A stretch of DNA of 64,000 nucleotides from Parcubacteria group bacterium CG10_big_fil_rev_8_21_14_0_10_36_14 (GTDB lineage: Bacteria; Patescibacteriota; Patescibacteriia; GCA-002772895). The stretch covers positions 6,728 through 70,727 of the forward strand of contig PFCS01000050.1 in assembly GCA_002772895.1 (NCBI GenBank). Direction: 5' to 3'. Made by a program: the position numbers and the translations under genes. The notes under the pieces were generated by a model. The model saw only the letters and a list, made by a program, of their open reading frames with translations, had not been told where the DNA came from and did no database searches. Every line of letters begins with the position of its first letter. Within the stretch, counting starts at the first letter, position 1. Shown here piece after piece: positions 22,136-51,687 of the stretch.

Positions 22136-22963
22136 TTATTTATACCCTACTAAAAAATGTCCTTGCGACAAAGTATAGTTAGTTTTAAATGGATATTTTA
22201 AGAAAATTTTTCTAATCCAAAGCGTAAAATTATATAATTTTGCGATAGCTTTATCCGTTTTCATAGAAATCGGCACAAATATCGGAAAAGGATTTACGTT
22301 TACCGCATAAACTTTTTTAAAACCCATATTTTTTACCTTTTCAATATAATCTTCCGGCGTATCATTGTTCCGATAATAATCTTTTGGTGGATAGAACTTA
22401 CCGGAAAGTAACCTCAAAAACCACTTATACAAATTATTAATATTTTGTGCTGACCATTTTTCAGGAATATTCAAGTGTATCATTACGCCACCCAATTTTA
22501 ATACGCGATAACCCTCTTTAATCGTTACATCATAATTATCTATATGCTCCAAAAGACCTATTGAATAAACAATGTCAACAGAACTATCCGGCATAGGAAT
22601 GGAATCACTCGAACCAACAAAAAATTCCGCTCGTGCATCATACTTGCTAAAATTTTCTTTTGCTAATTTTATTGCGTCTTCAGATATATCAAGAAGCGCT
22701 ACTTCAATCCCATCGTATTTATTCAAAAATAACGACATCGTTCCACGTCCACATCCAAGCTCTAATCCATTTTTATAATTTTTATCTTTTATTAAATTTT
22801 CAAAAAATTTATAATACCAAAAAAAATTTATCTGCCTCTGCGTTCTCGGTTTCATTCCCTTTGGCACAAACAAACTAAATTCATCATCACTACTCTTTTC
22901 TGATATTAATTTCCACTTATCTTCAAACTTTATACTTTGCATATTTAAATGGTTAAACCCCAA
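22136..22963 (-). CDS. Class I SAM-dependent methyltransferase.
   Basis: Motif I GLELGCGRGTMSLFL, then ...LLDISEDAIKLAKENF... and ...VDIVYSIGLLEHID...LKLGGVMIHLN. Confidence 0.75.
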   Translation of the reverse strand: MGFNHLNMQSIKFEDKWKLISEKSSDDEFSLFVPKGMKPRTQRQINFFWYYKFFENLIKDKNYKNGLELGCGRGTMSLFLNKYDGIEVALLDISEDAIKLAKENFSKYDARAEFFVGSSDSIPMPDSSVDIVYSIGLLEHIDNYDVTIKEGYRVLKLGGVMIHLNIPEKWSAQNINNLYKWFLRLLSGKFYPPKDYYRNNDTPEDYIEKVKNMGFKKVYAVNVNPFPIFVPISMKTDKAIAKLYNFTLWIRKIFLKYPFKTNYTLSQGHFLVGYK

Positions 22964-23675
22964 AAAAGTCTTTTTTATTTTCTCCGATTATTTTTTTGGC
23001 ATTCTTTAGCTCTTCCGGAAAATCAACTTCTAGCCAACCATGCCCGGAGATATCTCCAATTAATATTTCATTGGATTCCGACAGCTTCCGAACAACATCT
23101 TCCACAACCAAATTTTCTTCTCCTTGCGCCAATAGTTCATCTATGCAATTTTTGTATTCATTTAACATAGCAATATCACAATAAGTAAGCCCAACATATC
23201 CGCCATTAAATTTATCAAGTTTTTTAGAAATTTTTTTTAAAATAAAACTTTCATGTTCAACCTTCATATCATCATCTCCTAAGGGACGATCAAAATCACA
23301 GAAAGCCGTAATCCCCTTTAACTGATTTTTTACTTTTTCAGCGATTGCTTTTTTATATATATGATCAGCATTACAAATCAAAAAAGAATTTTCTATTTTT
23401 GGCAAAGCCTTTAACAATGTGTATAAATTACCCTTCAAATATTCCGGATTTTCAATTACCTCCGCTTCACTGTCGTAGCCAATAACCTTTTCTTTCAATT
23501 TTTCATAATCGCATCCGCCAATAATTTTTATTTCATCTGCACCAACCGCACGCAAAAAATCAATAGCATAATGCGCTAAGGGCTTTCCTTCAATTTCTAC
23601 CAACGCCTTTGTTGTACCGGCACCCAGACGTTTACCAATTCCGGCCGCTAAAAGAACACCTGTTAATTTGCTCAT
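22953..23675 (-). CDS. Nucleotidyltransferase (NTP_transferase fold; LicC/MobA-like sugar- or alcohol-phosphate cytidylyl/nucleotidyltransferase).
   Basis: LTGVLLAAGIGKRLGAGTTKALVEIEGKPLAHYAIDFL is the G-x-G-x-R-L nucleotide-binding signature of the sugar-phosphate nucleotidyltransferase family. 240 aa. Confidence 0.7.
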   Translation of the reverse strand: MSKLTGVLLAAGIGKRLGAGTTKALVEIEGKPLAHYAIDFLRAVGADEIKIIGGCDYEKLKEKVIGYDSEAEVIENPEYLKGNLYTLLKALPKIENSFLICNADHIYKKAIAEKVKNQLKGITAFCDFDRPLGDDDMKVEHESFILKKISKKLDKFNGGYVGLTYCDIAMLNEYKNCIDELLAQGEENLVVEDVVRKLSESNEILIGDISGHGWLEVDFPEELKNAKKIIGENKKDFFGV

Positions 23676-24307
23676 ATAATTAAATTGCTAATTTTTTTAA
23701 TAATTGGAATTTCATTATTAAGCGCCTTAAAATCATCTTCTTTAAAAGTTCCGACTTTTCCTATAAAATCAATATTTTCGGCATTTGCTAAAAAATAATC
23801 GTTCAAAGAATCGCCAATAAAGACTATTTTATCTTTCTCTAAGCCCAACTCTTTTATAGTAAAATCAAAATGATTCCTCCCCTTAGCAAAACCGTCTTTA
23901 AAACCTAATGCTAAATCAAAAATACTATGTAAATTATTATTATCAATAAATTTATCAATATTATACTGAAAATTATTTGAAGATATCACCAAGTTATAAT
24001 TAACTTCCTTTAGCTGTTTCAGAGCTTCCAGCGCCCCATCTTCCAATTCAACATCAGATGTTGCGAATAACTTTTGTTCTTCGTATATCGGCGCAACAAT
24101 TTTATTTTTTTCATTTCCCGGAAAAATTATTTCTAATTGTTGATAAAACGGAAAACCACTAGTTTTCAAATACATCTTCCGCGCCTCGCATTTATCCATT
24201 CCGTAATGCTCCGATATAAGGGAGCTCGCTACGTCAGTAAAAATCTGCATCGTATCAGCCAATGTACCGTCAAAATCAAAAATAATTGTATTTTTATTAG
24301 ATAACAT
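23672..24307 (-). CDS. HAD-superfamily hydrolase (phosphatase-like).
   Basis: Motif I IIFDFDGTLADT, motif II LVISSNN, motif III/IV ...KDKIVFIGDSLNDY. Overlaps the NTP-transferase gene by 4 nt (ATGA). Confidence 0.75.
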   Translation of the reverse strand: MLSNKNTIIFDFDGTLADTMQIFTDVASSLISEHYGMDKCEARKMYLKTSGFPFYQQLEIIFPGNEKNKIVAPIYEEQKLFATSDVELEDGALEALKQLKEVNYNLVISSNNFQYNIDKFIDNNNLHSIFDLALGFKDGFAKGRNHFDFTIKELGLEKDKIVFIGDSLNDYFLANAENIDFIGKVGTFKEDDFKALNNEIPIIKKISNLII

Positions 24308-24313: not shown

Positions 24314-25237
24314 TTATATTAATTTTGCATTAAGACGTTTTAATGCCCACCTCTCCAAATTCTTGCCATTAATCCCCAACTTAGTGCTTAATGCCACATC
24401 ATAGCCTAATTCTTCTAAAATAGCAATGGTATTCGCATTATAATTTCCATGAGGATAAGAAATGGCATAAATAGGAATGTTTATAATATTTTCTAATATA
24501 TCTTTTGGCTTTTTTATTTCTTCATACATATCGTTTTTCGATAGCTCATCTAAACGTAAATGCCTATCGCCATGCGTCCCGATTGTCATTCCCGCCTCCG
24601 CCATTTCCGCTATTTCGCGTTTATTTAAATAAAGATTTTCGCAAAATTCTCTTTCATCACCTATATATTTCGGAAAAACTGCGCCTAAAAACTCCATCTT
24701 CTTTTCTTCAGGCAAAGTTTGTAAAATAATTTTCAAATTAACCGTAAGCACATCATCATATATATACCTATCGTCTCTTTTTTCTTTATCACTTAAAGCA
24801 AATTCTTTTTGTATCGTTTTATTTTGTTTTTTAATAAACTCATAATATTCTTCCGCTAATCTTTTTGTACCTATTTTAGCAAGTAAAAAATGCACCTTAT
24901 GTACATTGGCTACTTTTCCCTCTAAAGACATCGTGATAGGAAAAAATACACCCTTTATTCCATATTTTTTTAAAATCGGAAAGACACTGTCATAATGATC
25001 ACTCAATCCATCATCAAAAGTAAAAACACACGCCTTTGATGGTAACTCTTTTTGTCCTAATACGGATTGTCGCACGTCTTCTAAAGAAATTATTTCATAT
25101 TCGCTTTTAAATCTTTCAATATGATTCTTAAATAAGTCTGTCCCTATAGCATTTATCTTTGGAAAGGGCGTTTTATCCGCATCTCGCACATAATGATACA
25201 TTATTATAGCCAATTCTTTTTCTTGTCCTTCTTTCAT
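24314..25237 (-). CDS. Polysaccharide deacetylase (NodB-homology, CE4).
   Basis: ACVFTFDDGLSDHYDSVFPILKKYGIKGVFFPIT (NodB motifs 1-2) and GTHGDRH (His motif). Confidence 0.75.
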   Translation of the reverse strand: MKEGQEKELAIIMYHYVRDADKTPFPKINAIGTDLFKNHIERFKSEYEIISLEDVRQSVLGQKELPSKACVFTFDDGLSDHYDSVFPILKKYGIKGVFFPITMSLEGKVANVHKVHFLLAKIGTKRLAEEYYEFIKKQNKTIQKEFALSDKEKRDDRYIYDDVLTVNLKIILQTLPEEKKMEFLGAVFPKYIGDEREFCENLYLNKREIAEMAEAGMTIGTHGDRHLRLDELSKNDMYEEIKKPKDILENIINIPIYAISYPHGNYNANTIAILEELGYDVALSTKLGINGKNLERWALKRLNAKLI

Positions 25238-25247: not shown

Positions 25248-26615
25248 TTATAAACTTATTAATGCTTCGGCAATACGTTTTCCTGATTGTCCATCTACCT
25301 TATAACAAAAATTATTCCTCAATTTTTCACGACCCTCGCTTCTTAAGGTGGAATTTTTCAGATATCCATTGATTGCTATCTTCAATTCATTAGGAGATTT
25401 AACAATTTCTATTCCTCCTGAAGCTACAATCGGCTTAAAATGAGTCGAGTCATACCAACGCGCCACCGAACTCCCGTACTCTTTCTTTTTATAGCCATCA
25501 AAAGCTATCCCTACTATCGGCTTGTCGCATACAGCCGCATCAATAGTCAATGTAGAAGAATAATTCATCATTATTGTCATCTGCATCATTAATGCAGAAA
25601 AATATTCCATATGCTCATACGAGTAATCCCAGGAATCGCGAAAAATATTATTTCGTTTAAACCAATGGTCAATGATAATATTTTTTTCTCCTAAAAATTT
25701 TTCAAATTTCTTTTCACCATCTCTTGCTGAAAAATAAGGACGAATAAATAAAATACAATCTTTTTCAAGCTCGCCTTTATTTATCCAGTCCCGAACCATT
25801 TCTGCAATCTCTATATCAGTCGAGGAATATTTGGCATCTGACCCAAGCACTAAAATTTCTTTTTTCGGATCTACGCCTATTTTCTTAAAAAACTCTTCTC
25901 GCGAAAAAGAACTCATCGGCTTAGAATAAACATCAAACTGCGGAATCCCAACAACAAAGATATCGTCACTATCAATATTCTGATACTTTTTTGCTTCTTT
26001 TATAAGACCACTTCCCCATAAAAATAATTTCTCTGGCTTTACTCGAAAGCTCATCTTGGAAAGGTTGTCCCAGCTTTTAGGCATAGCTATAATTTTTACG
26101 CCAAATCTTTTTGCAGCCTTTAACACATAAGAATCAGCATCATCCATGGGATTTGTAGAAAAAACTATATCCGGACTGTATTTCTGAAAAAAAACGTAAT
26201 ACTCCTTACCGGGACAAAAAAGAAAATCAATATAGCGAATTACCTCTTTAATAAATCCAAATTTGGAAAGGGGCTTAAAAAAAATTCTTTTTAATATTCT
26301 ACGCATGGCGCTAGTTTCGCTTTTGTCCATAATGCCATATTTATCACGCAGAACAGTACTCTCATTGTAAACTAAGGCCTTATTGAGACCGGCAAAAAAA
26401 TAATCACGTAGATTCCATTTATGGTTATAAAGCGGTTCAAAAAAAATATTTTCTTCGCCAAACTCCTTCCTAAAGACTTCGTCACTAAAAGCAGGGCTCA
26501 AAATTATAATTTTCCAGCCCTCTTTTTTAAGAATCTCATAAAACTCGTTATGTAAAAAATTCTTTGCGATAGAACCGCGTGAAATAGTTATAAAAATTGT
26601 TTTTTTTGTTTGCAT
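25248..26615 (-). CDS. TagB/TagF-like glycerophosphotransferase-family protein (paralog of 20762-22132).
   Basis: Same length (455 aa) and colinear similarity to the first copy (MQTKKTIFITISRGSIAKNFL vs MKTIFIIISRGIIARNIL; FIRPYFS...; ...MNYSSTLTIDAAVCDKPIVGIAFD). Confidence 0.55.
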   Translation of the reverse strand: MQTKKTIFITISRGSIAKNFLHNEFYEILKKEGWKIIILSPAFSDEVFRKEFGEENIFFEPLYNHKWNLRDYFFAGLNKALVYNESTVLRDKYGIMDKSETSAMRRILKRIFFKPLSKFGFIKEVIRYIDFLFCPGKEYYVFFQKYSPDIVFSTNPMDDADSYVLKAAKRFGVKIIAMPKSWDNLSKMSFRVKPEKLFLWGSGLIKEAKKYQNIDSDDIFVVGIPQFDVYSKPMSSFSREEFFKKIGVDPKKEILVLGSDAKYSSTDIEIAEMVRDWINKGELEKDCILFIRPYFSARDGEKKFEKFLGEKNIIIDHWFKRNNIFRDSWDYSYEHMEYFSALMMQMTIMMNYSSTLTIDAAVCDKPIVGIAFDGYKKKEYGSSVARWYDSTHFKPIVASGGIEIVKSPNELKIAINGYLKNSTLRSEGREKLRNNFCYKVDGQSGKRIAEALISL

Positions 26616-26618: not shown

Positions 26619-27359
26619 TTAAGCAATATCTATTTCATTTTTCCTGCATTCATCACGAAAACAAGTAAATCCTGTCGTTTCGTATTTATAAAGGCCAACG
26701 TCTTTTATTTTGGCACCAAAACACATTTTAAATTTAGCAATCCCCATTTTATTCTTTTCTTTAATACTTATACCACCTAAATCGAAATGCACATATCCTT
26801 TTTCTTTAGCATATTCACAGATTTCATACACTAACCTTCTTGTGGCATACCCAACTATTGCATTTTTTATGTTTTTTTCATTTTCTAATCGCCTTGAAAA
26901 TATTTTTTCAATTCTTAAAAAATTATTATCATCATAACATGTTATGCCCGAGATTGTCTGTCCATCAAAATAAGCTGAAAAAAGTTTAGTTTTCCCAAAT
27001 TGTTCTTTCGGTTCAGGCGCCCAACCGCGAATTAAATCAAACTCCTTACTTAAATTATAAGCCTCTTCCATATTTTCATCTTCTCTCACAAAAGATAGCC
27101 CCTCTATATTTTGTGTTTTTCTAATTTCATTTCGAGTTGTAGAATTAAAACTCTTAAAAATATCTCCCAACCCTTGTTTTAAACTGATAATCGCATCTTG
27201 TTTTTCTTGCATTTCGAATCCAGTCAACGACGGCCCCCTTTCATAGCATACAATATGAAGACAATCAAAATTATCTTTTAAGCTTTGAATTTTTTTAAAA
27301 TTAAATTCATCAAAAATAAATTTTCCGTATCTAAATCCCGACAATGAAACGTCAAGCAT
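26619..27359 (-). CDS. FemAB / GNAT-fold (Acetyltransf_6-like) protein; candidate acyl- or aminoacyl-transferase acting on the glycan.
   Basis: C-terminal HFDLGGISIKEKNKMGIAKFKMCFGAKI resembles the FemAB-family ...GLYRFKKGFGG... box. 246 aa is short for a full FemX. Confidence 0.4.
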   Translation of the reverse strand: MLDVSLSGFRYGKFIFDEFNFKKIQSLKDNFDCLHIVCYERGPSLTGFEMQEKQDAIISLKQGLGDIFKSFNSTTRNEIRKTQNIEGLSFVREDENMEEAYNLSKEFDLIRGWAPEPKEQFGKTKLFSAYFDGQTISGITCYDDNNFLRIEKIFSRRLENEKNIKNAIVGYATRRLVYEICEYAKEKGYVHFDLGGISIKEKNKMGIAKFKMCFGAKIKDVGLYKYETTGFTCFRDECRKNEIDIA

Positions 27360-27370: not shown

Positions 27371-28747
27371 TTAATGTTTGCTTATTGACAATGGTTTTTT
27401 CCTAAAAATTATAAAAAATCTATTTATCATTTCCATAATTATTACTTTATCCGTTTCGTCAACTGAAAAAAACGATTTCCATCCTATAGTTTTCAGTCCG
27501 TATTTTTTTCTTAGATATATTTCCCGTATTATTGAAACAATAAATATTGTTATAATTGCTTCTATTATTGTACCAATAATACCAAATCGTAACATAAGAA
27601 CGGGTGACAAAATAAAAGTTAACAAGAAAGATATCACCGCACATAAAAACATAAATTTTTGTTCACGATAAGCAAATAAAATAGGCGTTTGCGATATTGA
27701 AAAAGCATTAAATAAAAGACGTAAAACCAAAAGATTAAAAAGCGGTATTGCAATAATATATTTTGGAAAAACATACGGTATAAGAGGAGAGATGACAACA
27801 TAGGAGCTAATTATCATCAAAATATACAAAACTAAAGAATATTTTGTAGCCTTTTGCAATATTTTTTTTAAAACGACTACATCGTGCAACTTTCTGGCAA
27901 TAATCGGAAAGATTACTGTCCCAAGCGGAATAAGCGAGGCGAGAACTGAATATAAATTTTGCGCAAGTGCCAGATAGCCGACCGCCTCGGTAGAAATTAT
28001 AACTTTTACCAACCAAAATTTTATTGTATTTGTAGAACTGGAAATAACGTTATTTGCAATCTGCCATTTACCATGAGCTCTAAAAATTTCATATATAAAC
28101 CTCATTTTTTCCATTGGAATATCTCTAAATAACAATAAAGTTTTCTTAAATTGTGGCAAACTAATAATTGCGGCAAAAAAGGTCCCAAAAATATAACAAA
28201 GAATCAGTGTAATAATATTTAATTTTCCAAACAATAAAAAAATGATAATAAAAATAAATTTTACAACAACTTCCGATATATTAGTTATTGATAAAAGCTT
28301 GAATCTTTCATTAATTTGTATAAGTAGAGAAGATATACCGCGCATATATTGCGCCAATGTCAATAACACCACCAGCCAAAAATATTGTTCGGCTATCATG
28401 CTATAATCCGATTTTAAATACGCCTTAATGATAAATAATACCAATAGCATTATAAAAAGTAGCCCTGCCCTTAATATCCAAAAATTATAAAGCAAACTTT
28501 TTGCTCTTGAGAGATTATTTTCGCCAAAATTTCTGGAAACATCAGATAAGACAAGGCTATCTATACCCATATTTGACCAAGCACCCAAAAGCCCGGCCAA
28601 AGACATAATTAGCGTAAAAATTCCATAGTCATGAACACTTACAACCCTTACGACAATAAGGATGGTAAAAAAAGAAAAAATGCGCATCAAAACATTTGCC
28701 GCACTAAGCACCATTGTTCCGGATATTATTTTTTCTCTAATGTCCAT
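27371..28747 (-). CDS. Polysaccharide/oligosaccharide flippase (Wzx-like, MOP superfamily).
   Basis: 458 aa and about 12 TM helices. N-terminus SGTMVLSAANVLMRIFSFFTILIVVRVVSVHDYGIFTLIMSL is typical of Polysacc_synt (PF01943) proteins. Confidence 0.75.
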   Translation of the reverse strand: MDIREKIISGTMVLSAANVLMRIFSFFTILIVVRVVSVHDYGIFTLIMSLAGLLGAWSNMGIDSLVLSDVSRNFGENNLSRAKSLLYNFWILRAGLLFIMLLVLFIIKAYLKSDYSMIAEQYFWLVVLLTLAQYMRGISSLLIQINERFKLLSITNISEVVVKFIFIIIFLLFGKLNIITLILCYIFGTFFAAIISLPQFKKTLLLFRDIPMEKMRFIYEIFRAHGKWQIANNVISSSTNTIKFWLVKVIISTEAVGYLALAQNLYSVLASLIPLGTVIFPIIARKLHDVVVLKKILQKATKYSLVLYILMIISSYVVISPLIPYVFPKYIIAIPLFNLLVLRLLFNAFSISQTPILFAYREQKFMFLCAVISFLLTFILSPVLMLRFGIIGTIIEAIITIFIVSIIREIYLRKKYGLKTIGWKSFFSVDETDKVIIMEMINRFFIIFRKKPLSISKH

Positions 28748-29636
28748 AAATCTTCTTTTTTATTTGCTTGAATAAATCAATTAATTTTCTTTGTTTAATG
28801 TAAAAATATACTTGACGATAACTGCCCGGTTCCCAAAAAGCGTCTTCTCCAACATCTGGATAGTTCGCATCCTGTGGCGCAATTAGTACTTGCAAACGGT
28901 ATCTTTTATTTTTATTTATTTTAATTATTTTAAAATTATTTTTAGATACTAAATATTTGAAAGTTTTCGGAGAATAACTAAAAGGATGCATATAATTAAA
29001 GAATGCATTAACTGGTTTTTTAAAAGATGATACATTAGGTATCTCTATATATACAACTCCTTTTTCTGATAACAGGCCTCTAAATTGCTTTAACTTTTCT
29101 AAAGGATCGACAAAATGTTCAAAAACATGATGCAATATCAAAATATTAAATTTATCTTGACTCAGCTTATAATAATCGTCAAAAAGTCCATTGAAAACAT
29201 TTATATCTAATTTTTTACTTACGACTTCTGAAAATAATTTTGAAGGATCTATTGCTTGTACTGTACATCCACCATTCTTTTTTAAATAATGTGAAATCTG
29301 CCCAGTAGTGCACCCTATATCCAAAACCGTCCTCTCCTCTCCTAAATAATCTTTTATAAATTCGTATACCGTTCTGCCTTTTTCGTTATCTTTAAAATCA
29401 AGTAACTTACTAATTTTATCTAAATATTGAAGGCCATAACAGTTTCTTTCATATTCATTATAGATATCCGCATATTCTTCCATGCTGGGTTGTGGATTTA
29501 AAAATACCAACCCGCACTTCTTGCAAATTACATTGTTAAACTTAATGGGTGATGCGCCTTTTTCTAAAATACCCCATGTGCTTATAATTTTGAAATTTCG
29601 GTCGTCACACAATGGACATCGTGATATATCATTCAT
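28737..29636 (-). CDS. Class I SAM methyltransferase with N-terminal Cys4 zinc ribbon (TylC3-like N-terminus); putative sugar C-/O-methyltransferase.
   Basis: CPLCDDRNFKII...VICKKCGLVFLNPQP (C-x2-C-x~27-C-x2-C), then motif I LDIGCTTGQISHYLKKNGG and ...HHVFEHFVDPLEKL...GVVYIEIPNV. Paralogs at 41269-42219 and 44185-45120. Confidence 0.7.
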   Translation of the reverse strand: MNDISRCPLCDDRNFKIISTWGILEKGASPIKFNNVICKKCGLVFLNPQPSMEEYADIYNEYERNCYGLQYLDKISKLLDFKDNEKGRTVYEFIKDYLGEERTVLDIGCTTGQISHYLKKNGGCTVQAIDPSKLFSEVVSKKLDINVFNGLFDDYYKLSQDKFNILILHHVFEHFVDPLEKLKQFRGLLSEKGVVYIEIPNVSSFKKPVNAFFNYMHPFSYSPKTFKYLVSKNNFKIIKINKNKRYRLQVLIAPQDANYPDVGEDAFWEPGSYRQVYFYIKQRKLIDLFKQIKKKIYGH

Positions 29637-29637: not shown

Positions 29638-30342
29638 TTATTTTTTTTGTTGCATTAAAAATTCCGCGAACTCAAAATCAATTGGTGCGTTTATATCAAC
29701 AGAACGCTCTTCTGACATAATATAAGCACGACTGTCCTTACCAAATAAATCTCCTCGCATTATTAAATCTGTTCGCGTCAAATAAATAGCGCAATTTCTT
29801 TTATAAACGTTTTTTAATGATTGACGAGATGCGCTTTTGTTTCCTTCGTCTTCCATTAAAGGAAAAATTTTATCGCCATCTAAAACCTTCAATTTTGCAA
29901 TCGACATATCTTCCATTTTTTTCATTCCCATAACAGAATCCGCGTCCGTTTCAACTATTTTTTCTATTGACATGTCAATATCTTCTGCTGTGCGAAGTGG
30001 ACTTGTAGGCTGTAAAATCATTACATAATCAAAGGTTCTATCTTCATTTTCTTGGAGCCATTTTACAACGTGCTGAATTACAGGAATGCTTTTTGCATTG
30101 TCGGTCGCCAATTCATCAGGTCTCATAAATGGCACAAGCGCACCATATTCGCGCGAAATTCCAGCAATCTCACTATCGTCGGTTGAAACCAAAAAATAAT
30201 CCAAACATTTGCTATTTTTAGCCGCCTCTATCGTATAGGCAATAAGCGGTTTTCCCGCCAACTCTTTTATATTTTTCCGTGGTATTCCTTTAGACCCTCC
30301 ACGTGCTGTAATTACAGCTAAAATTGTCTTATTTTTGAACAT
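29638..30342 (-). CDS. neuA: Second acylneuraminate/nonulosonate cytidylyltransferase (NeuA/LegF family).
   Basis: TILAVITARGGSKGIPRKNIKELAGKPLIAYTIEAAKNSK...LVSTDDSEIAGISREYGA is the CTP_transf_3 signature. 234 aa. Confidence 0.8.
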   Translation of the reverse strand: MFKNKTILAVITARGGSKGIPRKNIKELAGKPLIAYTIEAAKNSKCLDYFLVSTDDSEIAGISREYGALVPFMRPDELATDNAKSIPVIQHVVKWLQENEDRTFDYVMILQPTSPLRTAEDIDMSIEKIVETDADSVMGMKKMEDMSIAKLKVLDGDKIFPLMEDEGNKSASRQSLKNVYKRNCAIYLTRTDLIMRGDLFGKDSRAYIMSEERSVDINAPIDFEFAEFLMQQKK

Positions 30343-30399
30343 ATTATAATAATGTAGTATTCATATGATATTCTTATAAAATACACTAATCTGACCAAT

Positions 30400-30428
30400 T
30401 TGACAAGAAATTTATATAGGTGTAAATT
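30400..30428 (+). promoter_or_regulatory. Candidate sigma70-like promoter for the second neuC-like gene (TTGACA-N17-TAAATT).
   Basis: ttgaca at 30400-30405, a 17-nt spacer, taaatt at 30423-30428, and the ATG at 30455. It lies in the 112-nt divergent intergenic region. The -10 element is weak. Confidence 0.3.
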
Positions 30429-30454
30429 TATATTATATAATAACATCAAAAATT

Positions 30455-31648
30455 ATGCAAAATAAGCGAAAAATTGCCGTTTTAATCATCAACCGAGCCA
30501 ATTATGGCCGCCTAAAACCGGTGTTAAGAGCAATTCAAGAACATCCGGACTTAGAATTGCAATTAATAGTCGGCTCATCAATGTTGCTTTACAGATTTGG
30601 AAATGACATTGATTATATTGAGCGAGACGGCTTTAAAATTTCAGCTAAATTCAACATGATTATTGAAGGTGGCACACCAACAACAATGGCCCAATCTGCC
30701 GGTTTAGGGCTTATGAATTTGCCAACTATCCTAGAACAACTTAATCCTGATATTTTTTTAGTTAATGCAGACCGATTTGAAATTCTGCCAGCCGCTATTG
30801 CCGCCGCATATATGAACATCACCTTAGCACATACTTTGGGCGGAGAAATAACCGGCACAATTGACGAATCTGTGCGCCATGCGGTTACAAAACTGGCGCA
30901 TATTCATTTCGCTGCGCATAAACCGGCGGCAGAAAGAATTGCCAGCATGGGCGAAGATCCAAATAATATATTTATAGTCGGAAACCCTTCTTTGGATATT
31001 GCAAAAACAATCTCTGAAAAAATAAATATTGAAAAGTTTATAGATATTAGTCGAGGTACAGGATCCCCAATAGATTTTTCTAAACCATATATTCTTTGCT
31101 ATCAACATCCAGTAACTACCGAATATCAAGATGCATATAAACAAATTATTACTACTCTTGAAGCGTTGAGAAATATAAATATACAAACAATCATGCTTTG
31201 GCCAAATCCTGACGCCGGTACAGATATGCTTTCAAAAGGAATTAGAGTATTTAGAGAAAAAAATCCGGAATCACTAATCCACTTTTACAGAAGCTTTGCC
31301 AATGAAGATTATTTGAGCTTAATAAAAAACGCCTCCTGCATTGTCGGTAACTCATCATCAGCAATAATGGAAGGCGGATTTTTCGGTACACCCGCAGTAA
31401 ATATCGGCACCCGTCAGCAAGGACGCGAGAAATGTATCAACGTTGTAAATACAGGATATAGTAGAGAAGAAATAGAAAACGCCATAAAAGGACAGCTGGC
31501 ATACGGAAAATATAATCCCGATTATTTTTTCGGCGACGGACAGAGCGCCAAGCGTATTGCCGAAATTCTAGCAAACCATAACGTCCAGATACAAAAACAA
31601 TTTAATAAAGAAAAGGGCTTTCACTTGATAAAAAACTATATTAATTAA
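30455..31648 (+). CDS. neuC: Second UDP-GlcNAc 2-epimerase, hydrolysing type (NeuC/LegG family).
   Basis: KIAVLIINRANYGRLKPVLRAI...DIFLVNADRFEILPAAIAAAYMNITLAHTLGGEITG...HAVTKLAHIHF is colinear with the first NeuC-like copy. 397 aa. Confidence 0.8.
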   Translation: MQNKRKIAVLIINRANYGRLKPVLRAIQEHPDLELQLIVGSSMLLYRFGNDIDYIERDGFKISAKFNMIIEGGTPTTMAQSAGLGLMNLPTILEQLNPDIFLVNADRFEILPAAIAAAYMNITLAHTLGGEITGTIDESVRHAVTKLAHIHFAAHKPAAERIASMGEDPNNIFIVGNPSLDIAKTISEKINIEKFIDISRGTGSPIDFSKPYILCYQHPVTTEYQDAYKQIITTLEALRNINIQTIMLWPNPDAGTDMLSKGIRVFREKNPESLIHFYRSFANEDYLSLIKNASCIVGNSSSAIMEGGFFGTPAVNIGTRQQGREKCINVVNTGYSREEIENAIKGQLAYGKYNPDYFFGDGQSAKRIAEILANHNVQIQKQFNKEKGFHLIKNYIN

Positions 31649-31676
31649 AACATCCTGCGATATCGCAGGATGTTTT
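31647..31676. terminator. Perfect 30-bp palindrome; bidirectional intrinsic terminator shared by convergent neuC-like (+) and 2-hydroxyacid dehydrogenase (-) genes.
   Basis: aaaacatcctgcgat|atcgcaggatgtttt. Both stop codons (TAA at 31646-31648 on +, TAA encoded at 31675-31677 on -) overlap the stem ends. A-tract upstream and T-tract downstream. Confidence 0.7.
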
Positions 31677-32625
31677 ATAATATTTTTTTCACTTTCTCAG
31701 CAATGAAAATTTCCGTATTTTTCATTGAGTCATAAGTTGCACCACCGATGTGCGGAACAATTATTAGATTATTATGCGACTTAGTATATTCAAGAAGCAA
31801 ATTACCTTTTAAAAATTCTCCACCAGCGGTTTCTTCTGCCATAACATCAAGCCCTGCTCCGGCAATTTTCTTGGCCTTTAAGGCATTTAAAAGCGCGCTT
31901 TCATTTATAATTTTTCCCCGCGAAGTGTTTACTAGATATGCGCTTTCTTTCATCATCTTAAATTCCCGTTCACCTATTAAATCAACCGTCTCTTCATCCA
32001 AAGGCACATGCACGCTAATAAAATCAGCCCGCGACAGAAGCTCTTCAAAAATTGCTGACTCTGCCGCGCCACGCTCAATTTCCTCTTGGTTAACATACGG
32101 ATCATAGGCAACAACATTCATAAAAAACGCATTTCCATATTGAGCAATAATTTTTCCTAGCCGTCCAAAACCAATTATTCCTAAAGTTTTACCACGCAGC
32201 TCTATACCCTTAAAACTATCACGGTCCCAATTTTCTTTTTTCACCGACTCATATGCATCAGGTATATGCCGGATTAAAGCCAAGAACAGTCCCCAAGACA
32301 ATTCTGCAGTAGCTGTTATTGTATTTAAAAATTCCGTCTCCCCCTTTAAGCTTGCAACTTGCACGCCATGCTTCCCTGCCTCTTTCATATCAATATGGTC
32401 CAGCCCGGTTGTCGGACAAGCAATAATTTTTAAATCTTCCGCTGCATCTAAAATCTCTTTATCAATTTTATGTTCTAAACGGATAACTAAAATATCAGCG
32501 TCTTTTACGCCTGCCAGTAATTCACCTCGCGATAATTTCTTTTCTGCAAAAACATCTCCCACCTCTTGATAAATTGCAAGCGCCTCCTTACTGTAATCGC
32601 CGGGTTCACTAATTAAAATTTTCAT
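31675..32625 (-). CDS. D-isomer-specific 2-hydroxyacid dehydrogenase (SerA/GhrB/PdxB-like, NAD-binding).
   Basis: GKTLGIIGFGRLGKIIAQYG (GxGxxG), ...ISVHVPLDEETVDLIGEREFKMMKESAYLVNTSRGKIINESALLNALK...GAGLDV is the D-2-HADH catalytic domain pattern. Confidence 0.8.
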   Translation of the reverse strand: MKILISEPGDYSKEALAIYQEVGDVFAEKKLSRGELLAGVKDADILVIRLEHKIDKEILDAAEDLKIIACPTTGLDHIDMKEAGKHGVQVASLKGETEFLNTITATAELSWGLFLALIRHIPDAYESVKKENWDRDSFKGIELRGKTLGIIGFGRLGKIIAQYGNAFFMNVVAYDPYVNQEEIERGAAESAIFEELLSRADFISVHVPLDEETVDLIGEREFKMMKESAYLVNTSRGKIINESALLNALKAKKIAGAGLDVMAEETAGGEFLKGNLLLEYTKSHNNLIIVPHIGGATYDSMKNTEIFIAEKVKKIL

Positions 32626-35312
32626 AAGTTTGTAATTTTAGACAAAACGTCAGTCGCTATATCCTGACCATTATTTTCAAAAGTATTCTTTCCAAGCTTT
32701 GGAAATCCTCCGCCAAAAAATTCTTTCTTCTGATAGACGGATATTCCCGTCTGGTTGCCGGAAATTATATTGTCATATATTTTTGGTTCAGACAAGTCTT
32801 TCACAGCAATACCCATAACGCATCCATTAAGCTTATTACTAAAAATATCCGGATTAGAGTTTTCTCCCAAACTGATGCATTTATCGCCTGAACTTTTTAC
32901 TTCATTATTCGATATTTCCACGCTGGAACCGGAAATATCAATTCCGTCATTACCGTTACCATCAAAAATGTTGTCATAGATCTTACCACTTATAAAATCG
33001 CCGTCCAAACCGTCAAATCCATTTTTATAAAAATAAGAGTCCACTATTTCTACTTTTGCATTTTTAACATTCAATCCGTCATCCCCGCCGGCATATTTAA
33101 ATTGACAATTTTTTATTGAGATATCCGAACTGTGGCTTGCCAGGGCACCGGAAAAATGAATTCCATTTACGCGAGTATCCCCGCCATATTCAAATTCAAC
33201 ATATTCAAATTCACTCTTCTCCGGCACATCCACTATGCCAAAATTTCCCCAATAATCGTTGGAGTTCGCCGATAAAAATTTAATCGGATAGTCCTTACTT
33301 CCTTTAGCAATAACTGGGCTATAAGAACCGATTGATACTCCTTTTGCCATATAAAAAATTGCACCCGGCTCTATTTTTAGATGAATCCCCTTCGGGACTA
33401 TTAGCGTTTTATTAATATAATACGTACCCGCCGAAACATATGCGTCTCCATTTCCCGTAGCTTTAAACGAAGGATTTTTAGATATAAACTCATTAAGAGA
33501 TAGGTTGATATCATCTAAATTATTAAAATTACTATTATCTATATAAATTACTTCCGAACCCACTTTTTTACCGGTTAAAGAATTATCCAGCTCCATGTCA
33601 ACCGCAAAATCATCCGAATAAAATCCGGTTCCAATGCCTGCGGTAAAAAATATTTTATGGGTTACAGGCTGTAGAATAAAGCCTGTTCTTACATATTCAT
33701 CGTCATACTTATCAGCAGGAGGAACAAGTTTGGAAGATAGCACTATTTTCTGTTCTCCAAATTTAGCTTCTCCGTCCTTGTTAACAGTGTCTTTTTCTAA
33801 AAGAATATCGGCCGAGGTTAATTTTCCATCCATATCGCTGTCATAATAAGCGCTTACCAGAAAACCAGGAACAAGCCCGCTTATTTTTATTTCTTTTATC
33901 GTCATATCCACCGCGCTGTTTACCGTTATATCAGCCTCTGCAATTTCATAGTTTAAGAATGAATTTTTGTTATAGATAACCTTTGTAAAGGCTTCCGATT
34001 TTTTAAGATATTCTTTTATGAAATTAAAATTACTTTCTATCAAGCTCCTTGTTTCCTTATAACCCTTGATAAAAGTGCTATTTGAAAAATTCTTTTTCGA
34101 ATCCTTAAAAAATTCAATGCGGACGCTGTTGTATAAATCATCTATAAACTTTAAATCATCTTTAAGATTATCTTTGTCGCTAACATAATCCCAAGCCCTT
34201 TGGTTTATTTCAGTGGCAAAATCTGGAGATTCTAAAACGCGCGTTATAAGAGGATTAAAGAAAAGATAAGGAGAACCGATTGAAGCCAGGTCATTTCCCT
34301 CTGATTGCCAAGTAAAAAATTTAAATTTTCCATTTGTATTATCATAATACAAGTTCATGTTATGTCTCCAGTCCTCATGATTTCCACCAATTAAAAGTGT
34401 GTGCAAATACCACTCCATAAAACTTTTCTTATCTACAATATTAAAAATATTGTCATGAAATTCTTCTTGGTCTGCCTGGTTTACTAAATATGTAAGGCGA
34501 GCAATTGCCACGTAATTATCCGGTCTCTCGCCCGGATCAGCAACTCTTTTATCCCAATAATAAGGATCTTCAAAAATATATTTTTCATTTATATACCTTT
34601 CCGTAAAAAAATCAGTATCTCCAGAAAGTTTGTTTGTTTCCAGAAACTCTTTGCTCCATTGATTTATCTTATAATAAACTCCATATGCCTTGCCATTTAT
34701 CCTAAGCAACACAAAATCGCTGTCCAACACCTTTAATCCAATCTTTTCCGCTCTATAGTTATTGAACGGTTCAAGTAAATCACCGCCCACAATAAGATTT
34801 ATCGCACTCGTCCCTTCAAAAATCGCAGAATCACTAAATCTTATGCGCCATGATTTTTTATCATATCTCCAATGAAAATCAGAATTGCCTCTATATCTTA
34901 CCTCAACATTATAACTCTTACCCCCATATGAAAACTTGGCATTTATATACTTTTGATTTTCCTCAACAAACATCGCACCTTCTTCGGTTGGCAACGAATC
35001 ATTTATTTTCTTCCAATCTTTCTCGTCTATTATCAAATCGTAAACAGGCAGGTCTGGTTTCTTAAAAGAATAAATCAAATACGGCGCATCTTGGATCTTG
35101 CGCACAATTTTATCGGCCCATTTTGAATAAGGTGCTGGAAGTATGCTAAAAAGATATCTTTTTTTAATGCCATAATCATAAAAAAGAGATACAAGCACAA
35201 CCAAAACAATCAGATTGGCCACAAAAAGGCACCTGAAAAATATCTTTCTAAATACAGGGCTTCTTAATTTGTTATTTAATAACTTTATATATCTTAATAT
35301 CATCTGAATCAT
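32622..35312 (-). CDS. Large membrane-anchored/secreted protein: N-terminal CotH-family (atypical kinase) domain fused to a C-terminal right-handed parallel beta-helix (pectate-lyase/NosD-like) repeat domain.
   Basis: N-terminal TM segment (FFRCLFVANLIVLVVLVSLF). CotH-like core reads FSYGGKSYNVEVRYRGNSDFHWRYDKKSWRIRFSD...INLIVGGDLLEPFNNYRAEKIGLKV...LRINGKAYGVYY. C-terminal beta-helix repeats read NGFDGLDGDFISGKIYDNIFDGNGNDGIDISGSSVEISNNEV...GISVY. Paralog at 55840-58659. Confidence 0.65.
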   Translation of the reverse strand: MIQMILRYIKLLNNKLRSPVFRKIFFRCLFVANLIVLVVLVSLFYDYGIKKRYLFSILPAPYSKWADKIVRKIQDAPYLIYSFKKPDLPVYDLIIDEKDWKKINDSLPTEEGAMFVEENQKYINAKFSYGGKSYNVEVRYRGNSDFHWRYDKKSWRIRFSDSAIFEGTSAINLIVGGDLLEPFNNYRAEKIGLKVLDSDFVLLRINGKAYGVYYKINQWSKEFLETNKLSGDTDFFTERYINEKYIFEDPYYWDKRVADPGERPDNYVAIARLTYLVNQADQEEFHDNIFNIVDKKSFMEWYLHTLLIGGNHEDWRHNMNLYYDNTNGKFKFFTWQSEGNDLASIGSPYLFFNPLITRVLESPDFATEINQRAWDYVSDKDNLKDDLKFIDDLYNSVRIEFFKDSKKNFSNSTFIKGYKETRSLIESNFNFIKEYLKKSEAFTKVIYNKNSFLNYEIAEADITVNSAVDMTIKEIKISGLVPGFLVSAYYDSDMDGKLTSADILLEKDTVNKDGEAKFGEQKIVLSSKLVPPADKYDDEYVRTGFILQPVTHKIFFTAGIGTGFYSDDFAVDMELDNSLTGKKVGSEVIYIDNSNFNNLDDINLSLNEFISKNPSFKATGNGDAYVSAGTYYINKTLIVPKGIHLKIEPGAIFYMAKGVSIGSYSPVIAKGSKDYPIKFLSANSNDYWGNFGIVDVPEKSEFEYVEFEYGGDTRVNGIHFSGALASHSSDISIKNCQFKYAGGDDGLNVKNAKVEIVDSYFYKNGFDGLDGDFISGKIYDNIFDGNGNDGIDISGSSVEISNNEVKSSGDKCISLGENSNPDIFSNKLNGCVMGIAVKDLSEPKIYDNIISGNQTGISVYQKKEFFGGGFPKLGKNTFENNGQDIATDVLSKITNL

Positions 35313-37110: not shown

Positions 37111-38520
37111 CTACTTTGTTGGGCGCAAATAATTAAAAACTCGCTTTAATATAAGCTTCAAATGCGCGGGCGATCTTAAATCCCGTAAAACGTTAAAAAC
37201 AATTCTTGGCCTTAACCAAAACCCCAAAAAAATCTTCCTATGCCATTTTTTTAAAGTTTCTCTACTAATACCCTTTGGACAAACAGTAATATTATCAAAG
37301 CGTATCTTGTCCCAATCAACGCCATCAATCCGCCCACTTTCTTTGAGCCATGTATACATTTCCGATCCTGGGAGTGGAAGATAAAAATTAAACCCAGCCC
37401 TATCCAGCATAAGCTTTCTAGAAAATTCATAAGTTTGCCTCAAATCATCCTCATTTTCCTCGGGATAACCGATTATAAAAGCACCACCAGTCCTAAATCC
37501 CATTTTTCTAATGGCTTTTATTCTTTCTTCAACCATTTCTTTTTTTATGTGCTTATTCATATGGTCCATAATCCTCTGGGAACCAGACTCAATTCCTACA
37601 TGAATTGCATAAAACCCAGCTTTTTTCATTAATTTCAAAAGCTCGTCATCCAGCGTGTCCAAGCGAAGACCATTTGCACCAAAAAGCGAAATATTAAAAT
37701 TATTAGCCACTATTTTCTCAAGTACCTCTACTGCACGCGCCCTATGGGCTGTAAAATTATCATCCATAATATGAAATTCCTTGATACCATATTTTTCTAT
37801 CGCCCATTTCATTTCCTCTATAATATTATCCGCGCTTCTCATCCTCATATTTCTACCAACCACCGACTTTGAGGCGCAAAAAGTACAATTATAAGGGCAT
37901 CCTCGCGAAGTTACCAAATAGCCGATAGGGAGCTGTTTAAAGAAACTTCCGGCTGGTGCCTCGGGATATTCACCGGGTGGCATAAAGTCCCACGCCGGAA
38001 ACGGAAGACTATCTAGGTCTTCTTCAAAATAAACGGGATTAAAAAAAACTTCCCCTTCGCTTCTATAAACAAGTCCGGGAATATGGCTTAGGGGTATGTC
38101 TTTATTTTGAAATAATTTTTCAAGGAGCATCTTTAGACCTTTTTCTCCTTCACCCTTAAAAGCAAAGTCAATTTTATCAAAGTAGCCCATCAATTCTTTT
38201 GAATCTATAGCTGAAGCATGCGGACCACCAATTACCACAAGGACTTCTGGATTAGCTTCTTTTGCTACATTAATTTGCTCTTTTACTATTTTTATATTGT
38301 TTGAATACACCGTAACCCCTATGACATCCGGCTTTTTTTCCAAAACATATTCTTTAAATTTTTCTGGCGATACTTGTTTTAGGGTACAATCAAGAATTTC
38401 AATATTACTCCATCCATCTTTTCTTAAATATGAAGCAAGATAGCCCAAAGAAAGAGGCGGAGTTATTGCATAACCAAGAGTGCTAAAGGGTTTAACAAAT
38501 AAAATTTTCTGCTCTTTCAT
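37111..38520 (-). CDS. B12-binding-domain radical SAM enzyme (class B rSAM), paralog 2.
   Basis: N-terminal B12-binding-like region (ILFVKPFSTLGYAITPPLSLGYLASYLRKDG) and cluster motif TSRGCPYNCTFCAS. 469 aa. Confidence 0.8.
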   Translation of the reverse strand: MKEQKILFVKPFSTLGYAITPPLSLGYLASYLRKDGWSNIEILDCTLKQVSPEKFKEYVLEKKPDVIGVTVYSNNIKIVKEQINVAKEANPEVLVVIGGPHASAIDSKELMGYFDKIDFAFKGEGEKGLKMLLEKLFQNKDIPLSHIPGLVYRSEGEVFFNPVYFEEDLDSLPFPAWDFMPPGEYPEAPAGSFFKQLPIGYLVTSRGCPYNCTFCASKSVVGRNMRMRSADNIIEEMKWAIEKYGIKEFHIMDDNFTAHRARAVEVLEKIVANNFNISLFGANGLRLDTLDDELLKLMKKAGFYAIHVGIESGSQRIMDHMNKHIKKEMVEERIKAIRKMGFRTGGAFIIGYPEENEDDLRQTYEFSRKLMLDRAGFNFYLPLPGSEMYTWLKESGRIDGVDWDKIRFDNITVCPKGISRETLKKWHRKIFLGFWLRPRIVFNVLRDLRSPAHLKLILKRVFNYLRPTK

Positions 38521-41154: not shown

Positions 41155-41180
41155 ATCTACGCATAAATACTATATTATAG

Positions 41181-51679: not shown

Positions 51680-51687
51680 ATATTTTA

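Follow-up and report, generated by a model that had tools for sequence, protein, structure and literature searches.

We examined a 64,000-nucleotide stretch of DNA (hereafter the window) from Parcubacteria group bacterium CG10_big_fil_rev_8_21_14_0_10_36_14, a metagenome-assembled genome (MAG) of the Patescibacteria (also called candidate phyla radiation, CPR) obtained from groundwater (GCA_002772895.1; contig PFCS01000050.1, forward-strand positions 6,728 to 70,727), with a focus on its genes for the synthesis of nonulosonic acids (NulOs). Open reading frames (ORFs) of at least 120 aa in the window were scored against Pfam and NCBIfam, using equivalog cut-offs as thresholds for family membership. 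Three ORFs had been put forward in an original prediction as a second, dispersed set of NeuA-, NeuC- and NeuB-like genes, and all three are present: a CMP-nonulosonate synthetase gene, NeuA2 (29638–30342, minus strand, 234 aa), a divergently transcribed hydrolysing 2-epimerase gene, NeuC2 (30455–31648, plus strand, 397 aa), and a nonulosonate synthase gene, NeuB2, which begins at 63326 on the plus strand and runs off the window at 64000 after the first 225 of its 368 codons. The first set, consisting of NeuB1 (17960–18994), NeuA1 (17283–17957) and NeuC1 (16134–17279), all on the minus strand, lies 10.6 kb from position 29638, in agreement with the spacing of about 11 kb originally given. The locus contains two complete, anciently diverged NeuC/NeuB/NeuA-type gene sets. 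Pairwise identity is 37% for NeuC (139/377; 381 versus 397 aa, as claimed), 38% for NeuA (88/234) and 35% for NeuB (65/188), and a pair of candidate transferases described below is likewise divergent (TagB1 versus TagB2, 36%). At identities of 35–38% the three pairs are old, distinct paralogs, as had been proposed, and neither a recent duplication nor an assembly artefact. The same protein sequences recur in 4–6 independent assemblies.

Both epimerases fall within the hydrolysing nucleoside diphosphate N-acetylhexosamine 2-epimerases. NeuC2 scores 373.1 bits against the NCBIfam model NeuC_NnaA (TIGR03568; cut-off 235.9, E 1.2e-111) and 74.3 bits against the WecB model, with the human GNE epimerase domain (258 bits) and LegG (211 bits) as solved relatives; NeuC1 scores 391.6 bits against TIGR03568 versus 123 for WecB, with LegG (237 bits) and GNE (206 bits) as solved relatives. 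The equivalents of GNE D112, R113, E137, D143, R147, H148, H220, S301, S302, E307 and R321 are kept in both. At the position of GNE Glu134, NeuC2 has a leucine (Leu128), NeuC1 a glutamine and LegG a histidine. Glu134 of GNE has been proposed to bind the 4-OH of N-acetylmannosamine (ManNAc), the E134A variant has no detectable activity, and only Gln or His is tolerated in its place (PMC4793188); NeuC2 has none of the three. Each of the 15 closest relatives of NeuC2 (66–79% identity) has the leucine, part of an AHTLGGE motif, and so do 21 of the 105 that come next, the others having Gln with the exception of a single Met. The original prediction had allowed for inactivating substitutions in the catalytic residues of one set, and Leu128 comes close to being one in view of GNE E134A, but because it is kept in all 15 closest relatives it is best read as a selected clade trait and not as decay. 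Its presence weakens the case for plain UDP-N-acetylglucosamine (UDP-GlcNAc) as the substrate of NeuC2, argues for an altered substrate over a lost function, and hints that the precursor differs at C4, the later C7 of the nonulosonate. The substrate of LegG bears a 4-acetamido group.

Both synthases carry the Pfam NeuB domain (PF03102). NeuB1 (344 aa; Pfam NeuB, E 2.7e-72, and SAF) scores 300.4 bits against NeuB_NnaB (TIGR03569; cut-off 399.65) and 245.9 bits against PseI (cut-off 340.25), and its solved relatives are Neisseria meningitidis NeuB (191 bits), PseI (163 bits) and SpsE (146 bits). The NeuB2 fragment in the window (E 3.7e-47) is 100% identical to PIR66448.1 (P0001, 368 aa), and the full-length protein is likewise below the cut-offs, with 248.3 bits for NeuB_NnaB and 219 bits for PseI; its solved relatives are PseI (129 bits), SpsE (128 bits) and N. 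meningitidis NeuB (119 bits). In N. meningitidis numbering, residues K53, Q55, K129, S132, Y186, H215, E234, H236, D247 and R314 are kept in NeuB1 and NeuB2, and the equivalent of E25, within an IIAE motif, was read directly in both. E134 is kept in NeuB1 and replaced in NeuB2 by aspartate (D137), which is invariant, together with H217, E236, H238 and R331, in an alignment of 31 members of the NeuB2 clade; E134D is reported as natural variation among archaeal and eukaryotic synthases and in about 29% of those from the environment (PMC8208679). In the NeuB2 clade about nine residues are inserted behind the AE-G-K-N motif. A Pfam SAF match was obtained for NeuB1 and none for NeuB2, and the R314 equivalent, R331, is nevertheless invariant in the NeuB2 clade. 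By these profile matches both proteins are members of the NulO synthase superfamily, the scores being insufficient to assign a specificity. The labels given to the two by NCBI are off, as NeuB1 (PIR66409.1) is named 'CMP-N-acetylneuraminic acid synthetase' and NeuB2 'hypothetical protein', and the present analysis corrects this public annotation.

A neighbour-joining (NJ) tree of NeuB proteins was calculated from Kimura distances with 200 bootstrap replicates, including three solved references and outgroups labelled by their genomic context. Distant homologs (28–37% identity), mostly with a pseudaminic acid (Pse) context, found with NeuB2 in genome contigs by a scan driven by the generic motif AKIVEKHF, served only as such outgroups. 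Bootstrap support was 200/200 for the NeuB1 and NeuB2 clades and likewise for the Pse group, with NeuB2 outside the latter, and the group of SpsE and synthases with a legionaminic acid (Leg) context excludes both NeuB1 and NeuB2.

The cytidylyltransferases of the two sets match Pfam CTP_transf_3 (PF02348), with E values of 1.1e-24 for NeuA2 and 8.9e-21 for NeuA1 (224 aa), and score 176.6 and 140.4 bits, respectively, against PseF (TIGR03584), under its cut-off of 205.7. The best solved relative of NeuA2 is the CMP-NeuAc synthetase 6IFD (135 bits). The ARGGSK...KN and PTSP-x-R motifs of CMP-NulO synthetases are found in those of the window, in NeuA2 as ARGGSKGIPRKN and LQPTSPLR. NeuA2 nests among the NeuAs flanking NeuB2-type genes in an NJ tree, in which NeuA1 sits on a long separate branch. 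NeuA2 and NeuC2 are separated by an AT-rich spacer of 112 bp (30343–30454) containing TTGACA-17-TAAATT at 30400–30428 on the plus strand and TTGTCA-17-TATTTT at 30406–30378 on the minus strand; these −35/−10 pairs are suggestive only, as promoter-like sites are not enriched over shuffled sequences (15 versus 12.4 ± 2.8). At its other end NeuC2 shares a terminator-like hairpin with a 14-bp stem (31646–31677) with a convergent dehydrogenase gene.

Grouping NeuB2 with genes 32 kb away had been part of the original prediction, and it is borne out by the NeuA tree together with a survey of loci holding NeuB2-type synthases. Starting from the alignment of 31 proteins, 80 metagenomic loci were fetched, of which 39, all non-redundant and 8 kb or longer, served for counting genes within 10 kb of the synthase. 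A hydrolysing epimerase was present in 28/39 loci, 27 of them scoring higher to NeuC2 than to NeuC1, and a cytidylyltransferase in 29/39, all 29 scoring higher to NeuA2. The two occur together in 27 of the 39 loci, and a second NeuB-like gene in five. Within 5 kb of the synthase there are 24 NeuC and 25 NeuA genes, typically directly adjacent to it; in locus L007 NeuB2, NeuA and NeuC are contiguous, and in L175 a Leu-type NeuC2 (66% identity) and a NeuB2-type synthase (56%) are 6 kb apart. A set-2 module that is normally contiguous has thus become scattered in the genome studied here.

Set 2 is larger than first delimited, as a dehydrogenase, a HAD hydrolase, a cytidylyltransferase and a candidate transferase are tied to it by conserved synteny and fusion proteins. 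The gene convergent to NeuC2 (31675–32625, minus strand, 316 aa) encodes a D-2-hydroxyacid dehydrogenase resembling phosphoglycerate dehydrogenase (PGDH) and glyoxylate reductase (Pfam 2-Hacid_dh_C, E 1e-54; NCBIfam PGDH 279.6 bits, below the cut-off of 454; best solved relative the short PGDH 1WWK, 192 bits). In 21/39 loci a homolog (43–50% identity) is encoded no more than 10 kb from the NeuB2-type gene, and in one contig (L144:13254–14870) a NeuA2-type synthetase is fused to the dehydrogenase in a protein of 538 aa. A HAD-IA hydrolase (23672–24307, minus strand, 211 aa; Pfam HAD_2, E 1.5e-23) and a nucleotidyltransferase (22953–23675, minus strand, 240 aa; Pfam NTP_transf_3) lie further along the same strand, the latter having LicC (1JYK) and inositol-1-phosphate cytidylyltransferase (IPCT; 2XME) as best solved relatives. 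Domains homologous to both are found fused to NeuC2-type epimerases, the HAD domain (31–35% identity) in P0290 and P0366, and the nucleotidyltransferase domain (46–48%), at the N-terminus, in P0281, P0284 and P0289; the epimerase parts are 54–57% identical to NeuC2. Near NeuB2-type genes they are rare, a cytidylyltransferase homolog occurring in one and a HAD homolog in none of 43 NeuB2-type loci of at least 8 kb. No description of these architectures (NeuA with dehydrogenase, nucleotidyltransferase with NeuC, HAD with NeuC) for NulO pathways was found in the literature searched, nor anything relevant on 2-hydroxyacid dehydrogenases in NulO clusters. A methyltransferase dependent on S-adenosylmethionine (SAM) (28737–29636, minus strand; Pfam Methyltransf_23) is encoded directly downstream of NeuA2.

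Each set also has its own candidate NulO transferase, a protein of the GT-B glycosyltransferase fold resembling TagB and BFO_1060: TagB1 for set 1 (20762–22132, minus strand, 456 aa; Pfam Glyphos_transf, E 7e-11) and TagB2 for set 2 (25248–26615, minus strand, 455 aa; E 8e-6). The best NCBIfam match of both is the BFO_1060 family of glycosyltransferases (65.6 and 57 bits, respectively, below the cut-off of 200), against 22–23 bits for TarB/TarF. TagB-like genes are present in 18/39 NeuB2-type loci and are closer to TagB2 in 16 of the 18. TagB-like proteins are established transferases of Pse and Leg in Tannerella, described with DXD, D/E-D/E-G and HP motifs (PMC5420450), and TagB1 and TagB2 are plausible NulO transferases, although not BFO_1060 members by score.

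Synteny with three related Patescibacteria contigs (L174, L176 and L177) extends over a block of NeuC2, NeuA2, the dehydrogenase, the methyltransferase, Wzx, TagB2, the HAD hydrolase, the nucleotidyltransferase and a second methyltransferase, at identities of 43–77%. In all three contigs the divergent NeuA2/NeuC2 pair is kept (NeuC2 71–77%, NeuA2 66–75%), as are the dehydrogenase (65–69%), TagB2 (43–46%) and the methyltransferase following NeuA2, in the same position (49–52%); the HAD hydrolase (59–60%), the nucleotidyltransferase (56–66%) and the second methyltransferase occur in L174 and L176, and Wzx in L176 and L177. The other NulO module varies, being represented by a third NeuB type in L174, by a different second NeuA and NeuC in L176, and by a set-1 type in another contig, L009. 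Because the set-2 block is syntenic in L174, L176 and L177 while the other module varies, set 2 is, to judge from gene order, the conserved core of the lineage and set 1 an exchangeable, more mobile cassette.

The minus strand carries set 1 as a compact cassette, read from 22132 down to 15764 in the order TagB1, a B12-binding radical SAM enzyme, NeuB1, NeuA1, NeuC1 and a CBS protein, with gaps of 2–3 bp between NeuB1, NeuA1 and NeuC1. The radical SAM gene (19053–20657; Pfam B12-binding and Radical_SAM) is directly upstream of NeuB1, and its best NCBIfam matches are B12-binding radical SAM methyltransferases, all under cut-off. Following NeuC1 is a gene for a stand-alone CBS-pair protein (15764–16129, minus strand, 121 aa; Pfam CBS), which shares homology with the CBS pair at the N-terminus of CBS+NTP_transferase proteins of roughly 345 aa. 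The closest relatives of set 1 (53–68% identity) are from other CPR groups, SAR202, Omnitrophica and Desulfobacterota. L009 contains a TagB1-type gene (61%), a methyltransferase, a radical SAM enzyme (59%) and a NeuB1-type synthase (68%), directly followed by a NeuA that is closer to NeuA2, and, about 7 kb beyond, a NeuC1-type gene (62%). The SAR202 contig L011 has NeuA, NeuB (57%), NeuC (57%) and CBS genes in order, and two contigs of Spechtbacteria (L067 and L085) have TagB-like, NeuA, an unknown gene, NeuB, NeuC and CBS, so that the order of NeuC1 followed by CBS recurs in all three. A split version of the Leg pathway enzyme PtmE, composed of the CBS protein and the nucleotidyltransferase of the window, is not supported, as BLASTP found no counterpart in the window for the nucleotidyltransferase domain of the CBS+NTP_transferase proteins, and the enzyme that the window does encode is of the LicC/IPCT kind. 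In Candidatus Spechtbacteria (L067:14183–19250) the set-1-type cassette adjoins a bona fide Pse cluster, with PseB (470 bits) and PseC (460 bits), both exceeding their cut-offs, a pair for amidino modification made up of HisH and a WbuZ-like protein (the latter just under cut-off), and a Pse-associated methylase. A reading of set 1 as a Leg pathway was rejected, since the short-chain dehydrogenase/reductase (SDR) and DegT genes a few kb past the Spechtbacteria NeuB1, NeuC1 and CBS genes are the PseB and PseC of this separate cluster. Carrying two NulO pathways may be common among CPR bacteria.

The original prediction held that two parallel pathways would yield two different NulOs, for example a Neu5Ac-like (N-acetylneuraminic acid-like) and a Leg- or Pse-like sugar, or would divide one pathway between two substrates. 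The two complete sets of distinct ancestry stand; the Pse alternative does not, and for Leg no positive support emerged. The dehydratase, aminotransferase and acetyltransferase genes sought just past the window end are not there. No gene at the grade of PseB, PseC, LegB or LegC was found in the window or its flanks, and neither PseG nor PseH was detected in them; the best window scores were all under the cut-offs (PseC 284.5, cut-off 423.5; PseB at most 45, cut-off 407.75; LegB, TIGR04180, 145.9, cut-off 475; LegC, TIGR04181, 218, cut-off 420), the Spechtbacteria PseB and PseC serving as a positive control for the Pse models. No hexapeptide acetyltransferase turned up among the ORFs scanned in the window. 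A Pse route is excluded for both sets on grounds of gene content, since each relies on a NeuC-type epimerase and neither PseB, PseC, PseG nor PseH was found.

In the predicted scheme, the hydrolysing 2-epimerase of each set would free a 2-epimerised N-acyl-hexosamine from its nucleotide sugar, and the NeuB-family synthase would condense this with phosphoenolpyruvate to a nine-carbon 2-keto-3-deoxy acid. The cytidylyltransferase would then produce a CMP-activated NulO donor, from which the TagB/BFO_1060-like GT-B protein belonging to each set would transfer the NulO onto a glycan. For set 2 the scheme would draw on scattered genes, with NeuA2 divergent from NeuC2, the convergent dehydrogenase, TagB2, the HAD hydrolase and LicC-like gene, and NeuB2 32 kb off. 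We put the probability of two functional pathways making two different CMP-NulOs at about 0.6. Distinct specificities are read from the deep clade of NeuB2, the leucine of NeuC2 at the 4-OH site and the differing accessory genes. The product of set 1 is probably a Neu5Ac-like sugar, possibly methylated or otherwise modified by the adjacent B12-binding radical SAM enzyme, and that of set 2 probably a non-canonical NulO whose hexosamine precursor differs at C4, corresponding to C7 of the NulO.

Several observations weigh against two different sugars. By gene content both sets resemble plain three-enzyme Neu5Ac routes, which could make the same sugar, and their activities and glycan chemistry are predictions. 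Product names are not assignable to the synthases or the cytidylyltransferases, because neither kind of enzyme reaches an equivalog cut-off. In the NeuB tree the NeuB2 clade is stably joined to no reference, and the grouping of NeuB1 with N. meningitidis NeuB, recovered in only 98/200 replicates (49%), is not relied on. NeuC2 is closer to epimerases of other phyla (52–59%) than to the NeuCs beside most NeuB2-type genes (37–53%), which have the motif H-x-E-G-G-D in place of HTLGGE, and because of this closer kinship and differing motif the partnership of NeuC2 and NeuB2 may be secondary in this genome. NeuC2 might have reduced activity, given the inactive E134A variant of GNE, and the closest relative, L174, encodes a synthase of the third NeuB type in the same operon. 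A final point is the likeness of the window cytidylyltransferase to enzymes acting on phospho-alcohols, such as LicC and IPCT.

This last point is the starting point of the alternative that survives best, although it is doubtful. The cytidylyltransferase, HAD hydrolase, dehydrogenase and TagB-like proteins would, under this explanation, make and transfer a CDP-activated phospho-alcohol or phospho-acid in a branch resembling teichoic acid synthesis, and set 2 would be confined to NeuA2, NeuC2 and NeuB2. The CDP-2-glycerol pathway of pneumococci combines a reductase, a phosphotransferase and a LicC-like enzyme. Both TagB-like proteins match Pfam Glyphos_transf, and a CDP-alcohol phosphatidyltransferase gene is present at 49209–49943. 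The preference of the TagB-like proteins for BFO_1060 over TarB/TarF argues the other way, as does the presence of TagB-like genes in nearly half (18/39) of the NeuB2-type loci, compared with one and none of 43 for the cytidylyltransferase and the HAD hydrolase. The fusions likewise speak against a branch that is wholly separate, since the cytidylyltransferase and the HAD domain occur in one protein with NeuC2-type epimerases, and the dehydrogenase in one with a NeuA2-type synthetase.

Simple redundancy is an unlikely explanation. Both sets would then make the same sugar, in the simplest case CMP-Neu5Ac from UDP-GlcNAc, one being a horizontally acquired copy retained for dosage or regulation. 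Each set does amount to no more than the basic trio of NeuC, NeuB and NeuA, the two epimerases score above the cut-off of one and the same NeuC equivalog model, no genes of LegB, LegC, PseB or PseC grade accompany them in the window or flanks, and the occurrence of set-1 relatives in SAR202, Omnitrophica and Desulfobacterota fits a mobile cassette. What is hard to reconcile with a shared product is an identity of 35–38% in all four protein pairs, together with two separate candidate transferases, the different accessory genes (radical SAM and CBS in set 1 versus dehydrogenase, HAD and nucleotidyltransferase in set 2), the separate deep clade of NeuB2 with its invariant E134D, and the 4-OH-contact residue, Gln in NeuC1 versus a clade-conserved Leu in NeuC2. 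L176 and L009 also keep two sets, and a small CPR genome is unlikely to retain pure redundancy.

The enzymes might also form a pool without fixed partners, in which NeuA2 and NeuC2 serve the operon ending in NeuB1 and NeuB2 acts independently or with another epimerase. This is improbable, for although NeuA2 is the first gene of the co-directional string running from 30342 down to NeuB1, NeuA1 and NeuC1, NeuB1 already has a tightly packed NeuA1 and NeuC1 of its own. Also in its favour, the NeuA2 ortholog of L009 (66%) lies directly upstream of TagB1-type, radical SAM and NeuB1-type genes, the operon headed by NeuA2 in L174 holds the third NeuB type, and the NeuCs flanking most NeuB2-type genes are not those most similar to NeuC2. 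NeuB2-type synthases, on the other hand, have NeuC- and NeuA2-type genes beside them in most loci, NeuA2 nests inside the NeuA clade of these loci, and L175 pairs a Leu-type NeuC2 with a NeuB2-type synthase. Decay of set 2, with NeuC2 having lost a key glutamate and its genes scattered by disuse, is very improbable despite Leu128 at the position where E134A inactivates GNE and the dispersal of the genes over 40 kb, given the retention of the leucine in 15/15 and 21/105 relatives, indicating purifying selection, full-length ORFs with every other catalytic residue intact, synteny of the block in three related genomes and identical proteins in 4–6 assemblies.

Both NulO gene sets belong to a glycan locus that spans at least 75 kb, starting at about 2858 and continuing beyond the window end for at least 10 kb (L003:7536–17535). 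Its border on the low side is formed by Lon, M50 peptidase and Phe-tRNA synthetase genes before the window start. Past the window end NeuB2 is solitary on the plus strand, next to a convergent UXS-like SDR gene, and is followed further on by rubrerythrin, glycosyltransferases, another SDR and two Wzy_C/TPR genes. The co-directional minus-strand string headed by NeuA2 (30342 downward) comprises a methyltransferase, Wzx, a FemAB-like protein, TagB2, a deacetylase, the HAD hydrolase, the nucleotidyltransferase, a second methyltransferase, TagB1, the radical SAM enzyme, NeuB1, NeuA1, NeuC1 and CBS. The FemAB-like acyltransferase (26619–27359, minus strand) and the polysaccharide deacetylase (24314–25237, minus strand) are located between the two TagB-like genes; their homologs are found in 6/43 and 3/43 NeuB2-type loci, respectively, and also in L175, and the pair might act in de-N-acetylation of a sugar followed by re-acylation. 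Directly after set 1 there is a pair of VTC-domain and DUF4956 genes (15006–15767 and 14321–15001). The related contig L176 has the same order of dehydrogenase, DUF4956, VTC and CotH genes 3' of NeuC2. Two giant proteins combining a CotH kinase with a right-handed beta-helix are encoded at 32622–35312 (minus strand, 896 aa) and 55840–58659 (plus strand, 939 aa); the start call of the former differs between NCBI (896 aa) and JGI, ENA and Logan (866 aa).

Other genes of the locus point to a wider range of sugar modifications. Three genes for B12-binding radical SAM enzymes (19053–20657, 37111–38520 and 60043–61452) and at least ten for class-I methyltransferases (e.g. 22136–22963, 28737–29636, 40348–42219 and 44185–45918) suggest unusually heavy methylation of the glycan, possibly including C-methylation. 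A third Epimerase_2 gene (46921–48009, minus strand) is of the non-hydrolysing WecB type (304.9 bits for WecB, cut-off 210, versus 88.1 for the NeuC model); because WecB-type enzymes are UDP-GlcNAc 2-epimerases, the locus probably also makes UDP-ManNAc, apart from both NulO sets. An ORF related to UDP-glucose/GDP-mannose dehydrogenases (13489–14280, minus strand, 263 aa) is without the initial ~68 positions of the profile for the N-terminal NAD-binding domain. It may be a gene cut short or belong to a short family of its own; in 16/39 loci, short relatives with a median length of about 312 aa and about 37% identity occur near NeuB2-type genes. The protein encoded at 53191–54708 (minus strand, 505 aa) has a FemAB/GNAT-like N-terminal part, a partial DegT-like part and no NCBIfam match; it adjoins a GFO/IDH/MocA oxidoreductase gene resembling UDP-GlcNAc 3-dehydrogenase (54710–55717), with a DegT aminotransferase nearby (50576–51742), and the neighbourhood looks like a branch for a 3-amino sugar, neither Leg nor Pse.

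Members of the CPR are ultra-small, mostly uncultured and thought to live attached to hosts, with genomes of ~1 Mb. Their surface chemistry probably governs attachment and recognition, and a glycan locus of at least 75 kb with two NulO pathways would be a large investment for a small-genome lineage, which suggests that sialic-acid-like sugars matter at the interface between CPR and host. No literature linking Patescibacteria with nonulosonic acids was found among the sources searched. A module of NeuB2, NeuC2, NeuA2, the dehydrogenase and the TagB-like protein, possibly with the HAD hydrolase and the nucleotidyltransferase, recurs across dozens of metagenome contigs from groundwater, and its product may be an unknown NulO. 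We tentatively consider it possible that set 2 represents an undescribed NulO pathway, widespread in Patescibacteria, that makes a new NulO on ultra-small episymbionts. If so, it would combine a deep NeuB clade, in which Asp is invariant at the E134 position and an N-terminal insertion is present, with a Leu/Gln subfamily of epimerases and a CMP-synthetase coupled, in one locus by fusion, to a PGDH-like dehydrogenase, and the nucleotidyltransferase and HAD fusions would imply a dedicated, possibly non-UDP, C4-modified nucleotide-sugar precursor.

Among known systems, the CMP-Neu5Ac pathway (NeuC/NeuB/NeuA of Escherichia coli K1; SiaA/SiaC/SiaB of N. meningitidis) matches both sets in its three enzyme families and in the chemistry predicted for them. 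Unlike in that pathway, both synthases are below the NeuB_NnaB cut-off, the NeuB2 clade has E134D and an insertion, NeuC1 and NeuC2 lack Glu134, and there is no counterpart for the B12-binding radical SAM enzyme, CBS protein, dehydrogenase, HAD hydrolase and nucleotidyltransferase; the candidate transferases are TagB-like and do not belong to known sialyltransferase families. A dedicated nucleotidyltransferase supplies the NDP-sugar in the Leg pathway of Campylobacter jejuni, a parallel to the fusions of nucleotidyltransferases with NeuC2-type epimerases and to the CBS homology. The Leg pathway (LegB/C/H/G/I/F and PtmE of C. jejuni; LegG of Acinetobacter baumannii; sps of Bacillus subtilis, PMC7439481) likewise uses a NeuC-like hydrolysing epimerase, and LegG, the best solved relative of NeuC1, shares with NeuC1 and NeuC2 the lack of Glu at the GNE-134 position. 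It differs in its dehydratase, aminotransferase and acetyltransferase, for which the window and flanks hold nothing at LegB/LegC grade, and in its nucleotidyltransferase, that of the window being LicC/IPCT-like and not PtmE-like. In the animal route (GNE/NANS/NANP/CMAS), the GNE epimerase domain is the best solved relative of NeuC2, E134D of the NeuB2 clade is found as reported for eukaryotic synthases, and NANP is a HAD phosphatase, just as a HAD domain is linked to NeuC2-type epimerases here. Unlike the animal route, NeuC2 has Leu in place of GNE Glu134, and no ManNAc kinase was found in the locus.

Several NulO pathways in a single organism are already known, as in C. jejuni, which has three NeuB paralogs. 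Other examples are Leptospira (PMC3438082) and Tannerella strains (PMC5378307). In such organisms paralogous NeuB and NeuA sets provide different NulOs for surface structures, but these are canonical Neu, Leg and Pse pathways with extra genes, whereas here both sets are NeuC-type, in one locus and in a CPR host. The Tannerella forsythia transferases Tanf_01245/BFO_1060 (PMC5420450) are TagB-like GT-B proteins encoded beside NulO genes, as are TagB1 and TagB2, which by scores far below the cut-off are at most their distant relatives. The enzyme families themselves are standard, and no long-standing question is settled by their occurrence here. What sets the present system apart from those described is its CPR host, the size of the glycan locus and the variant represented by set 2, with a NeuB clade characterised by E134D, Leu/Gln epimerases with their fusions, and a dehydrogenase coupled to the CMP-synthetase.

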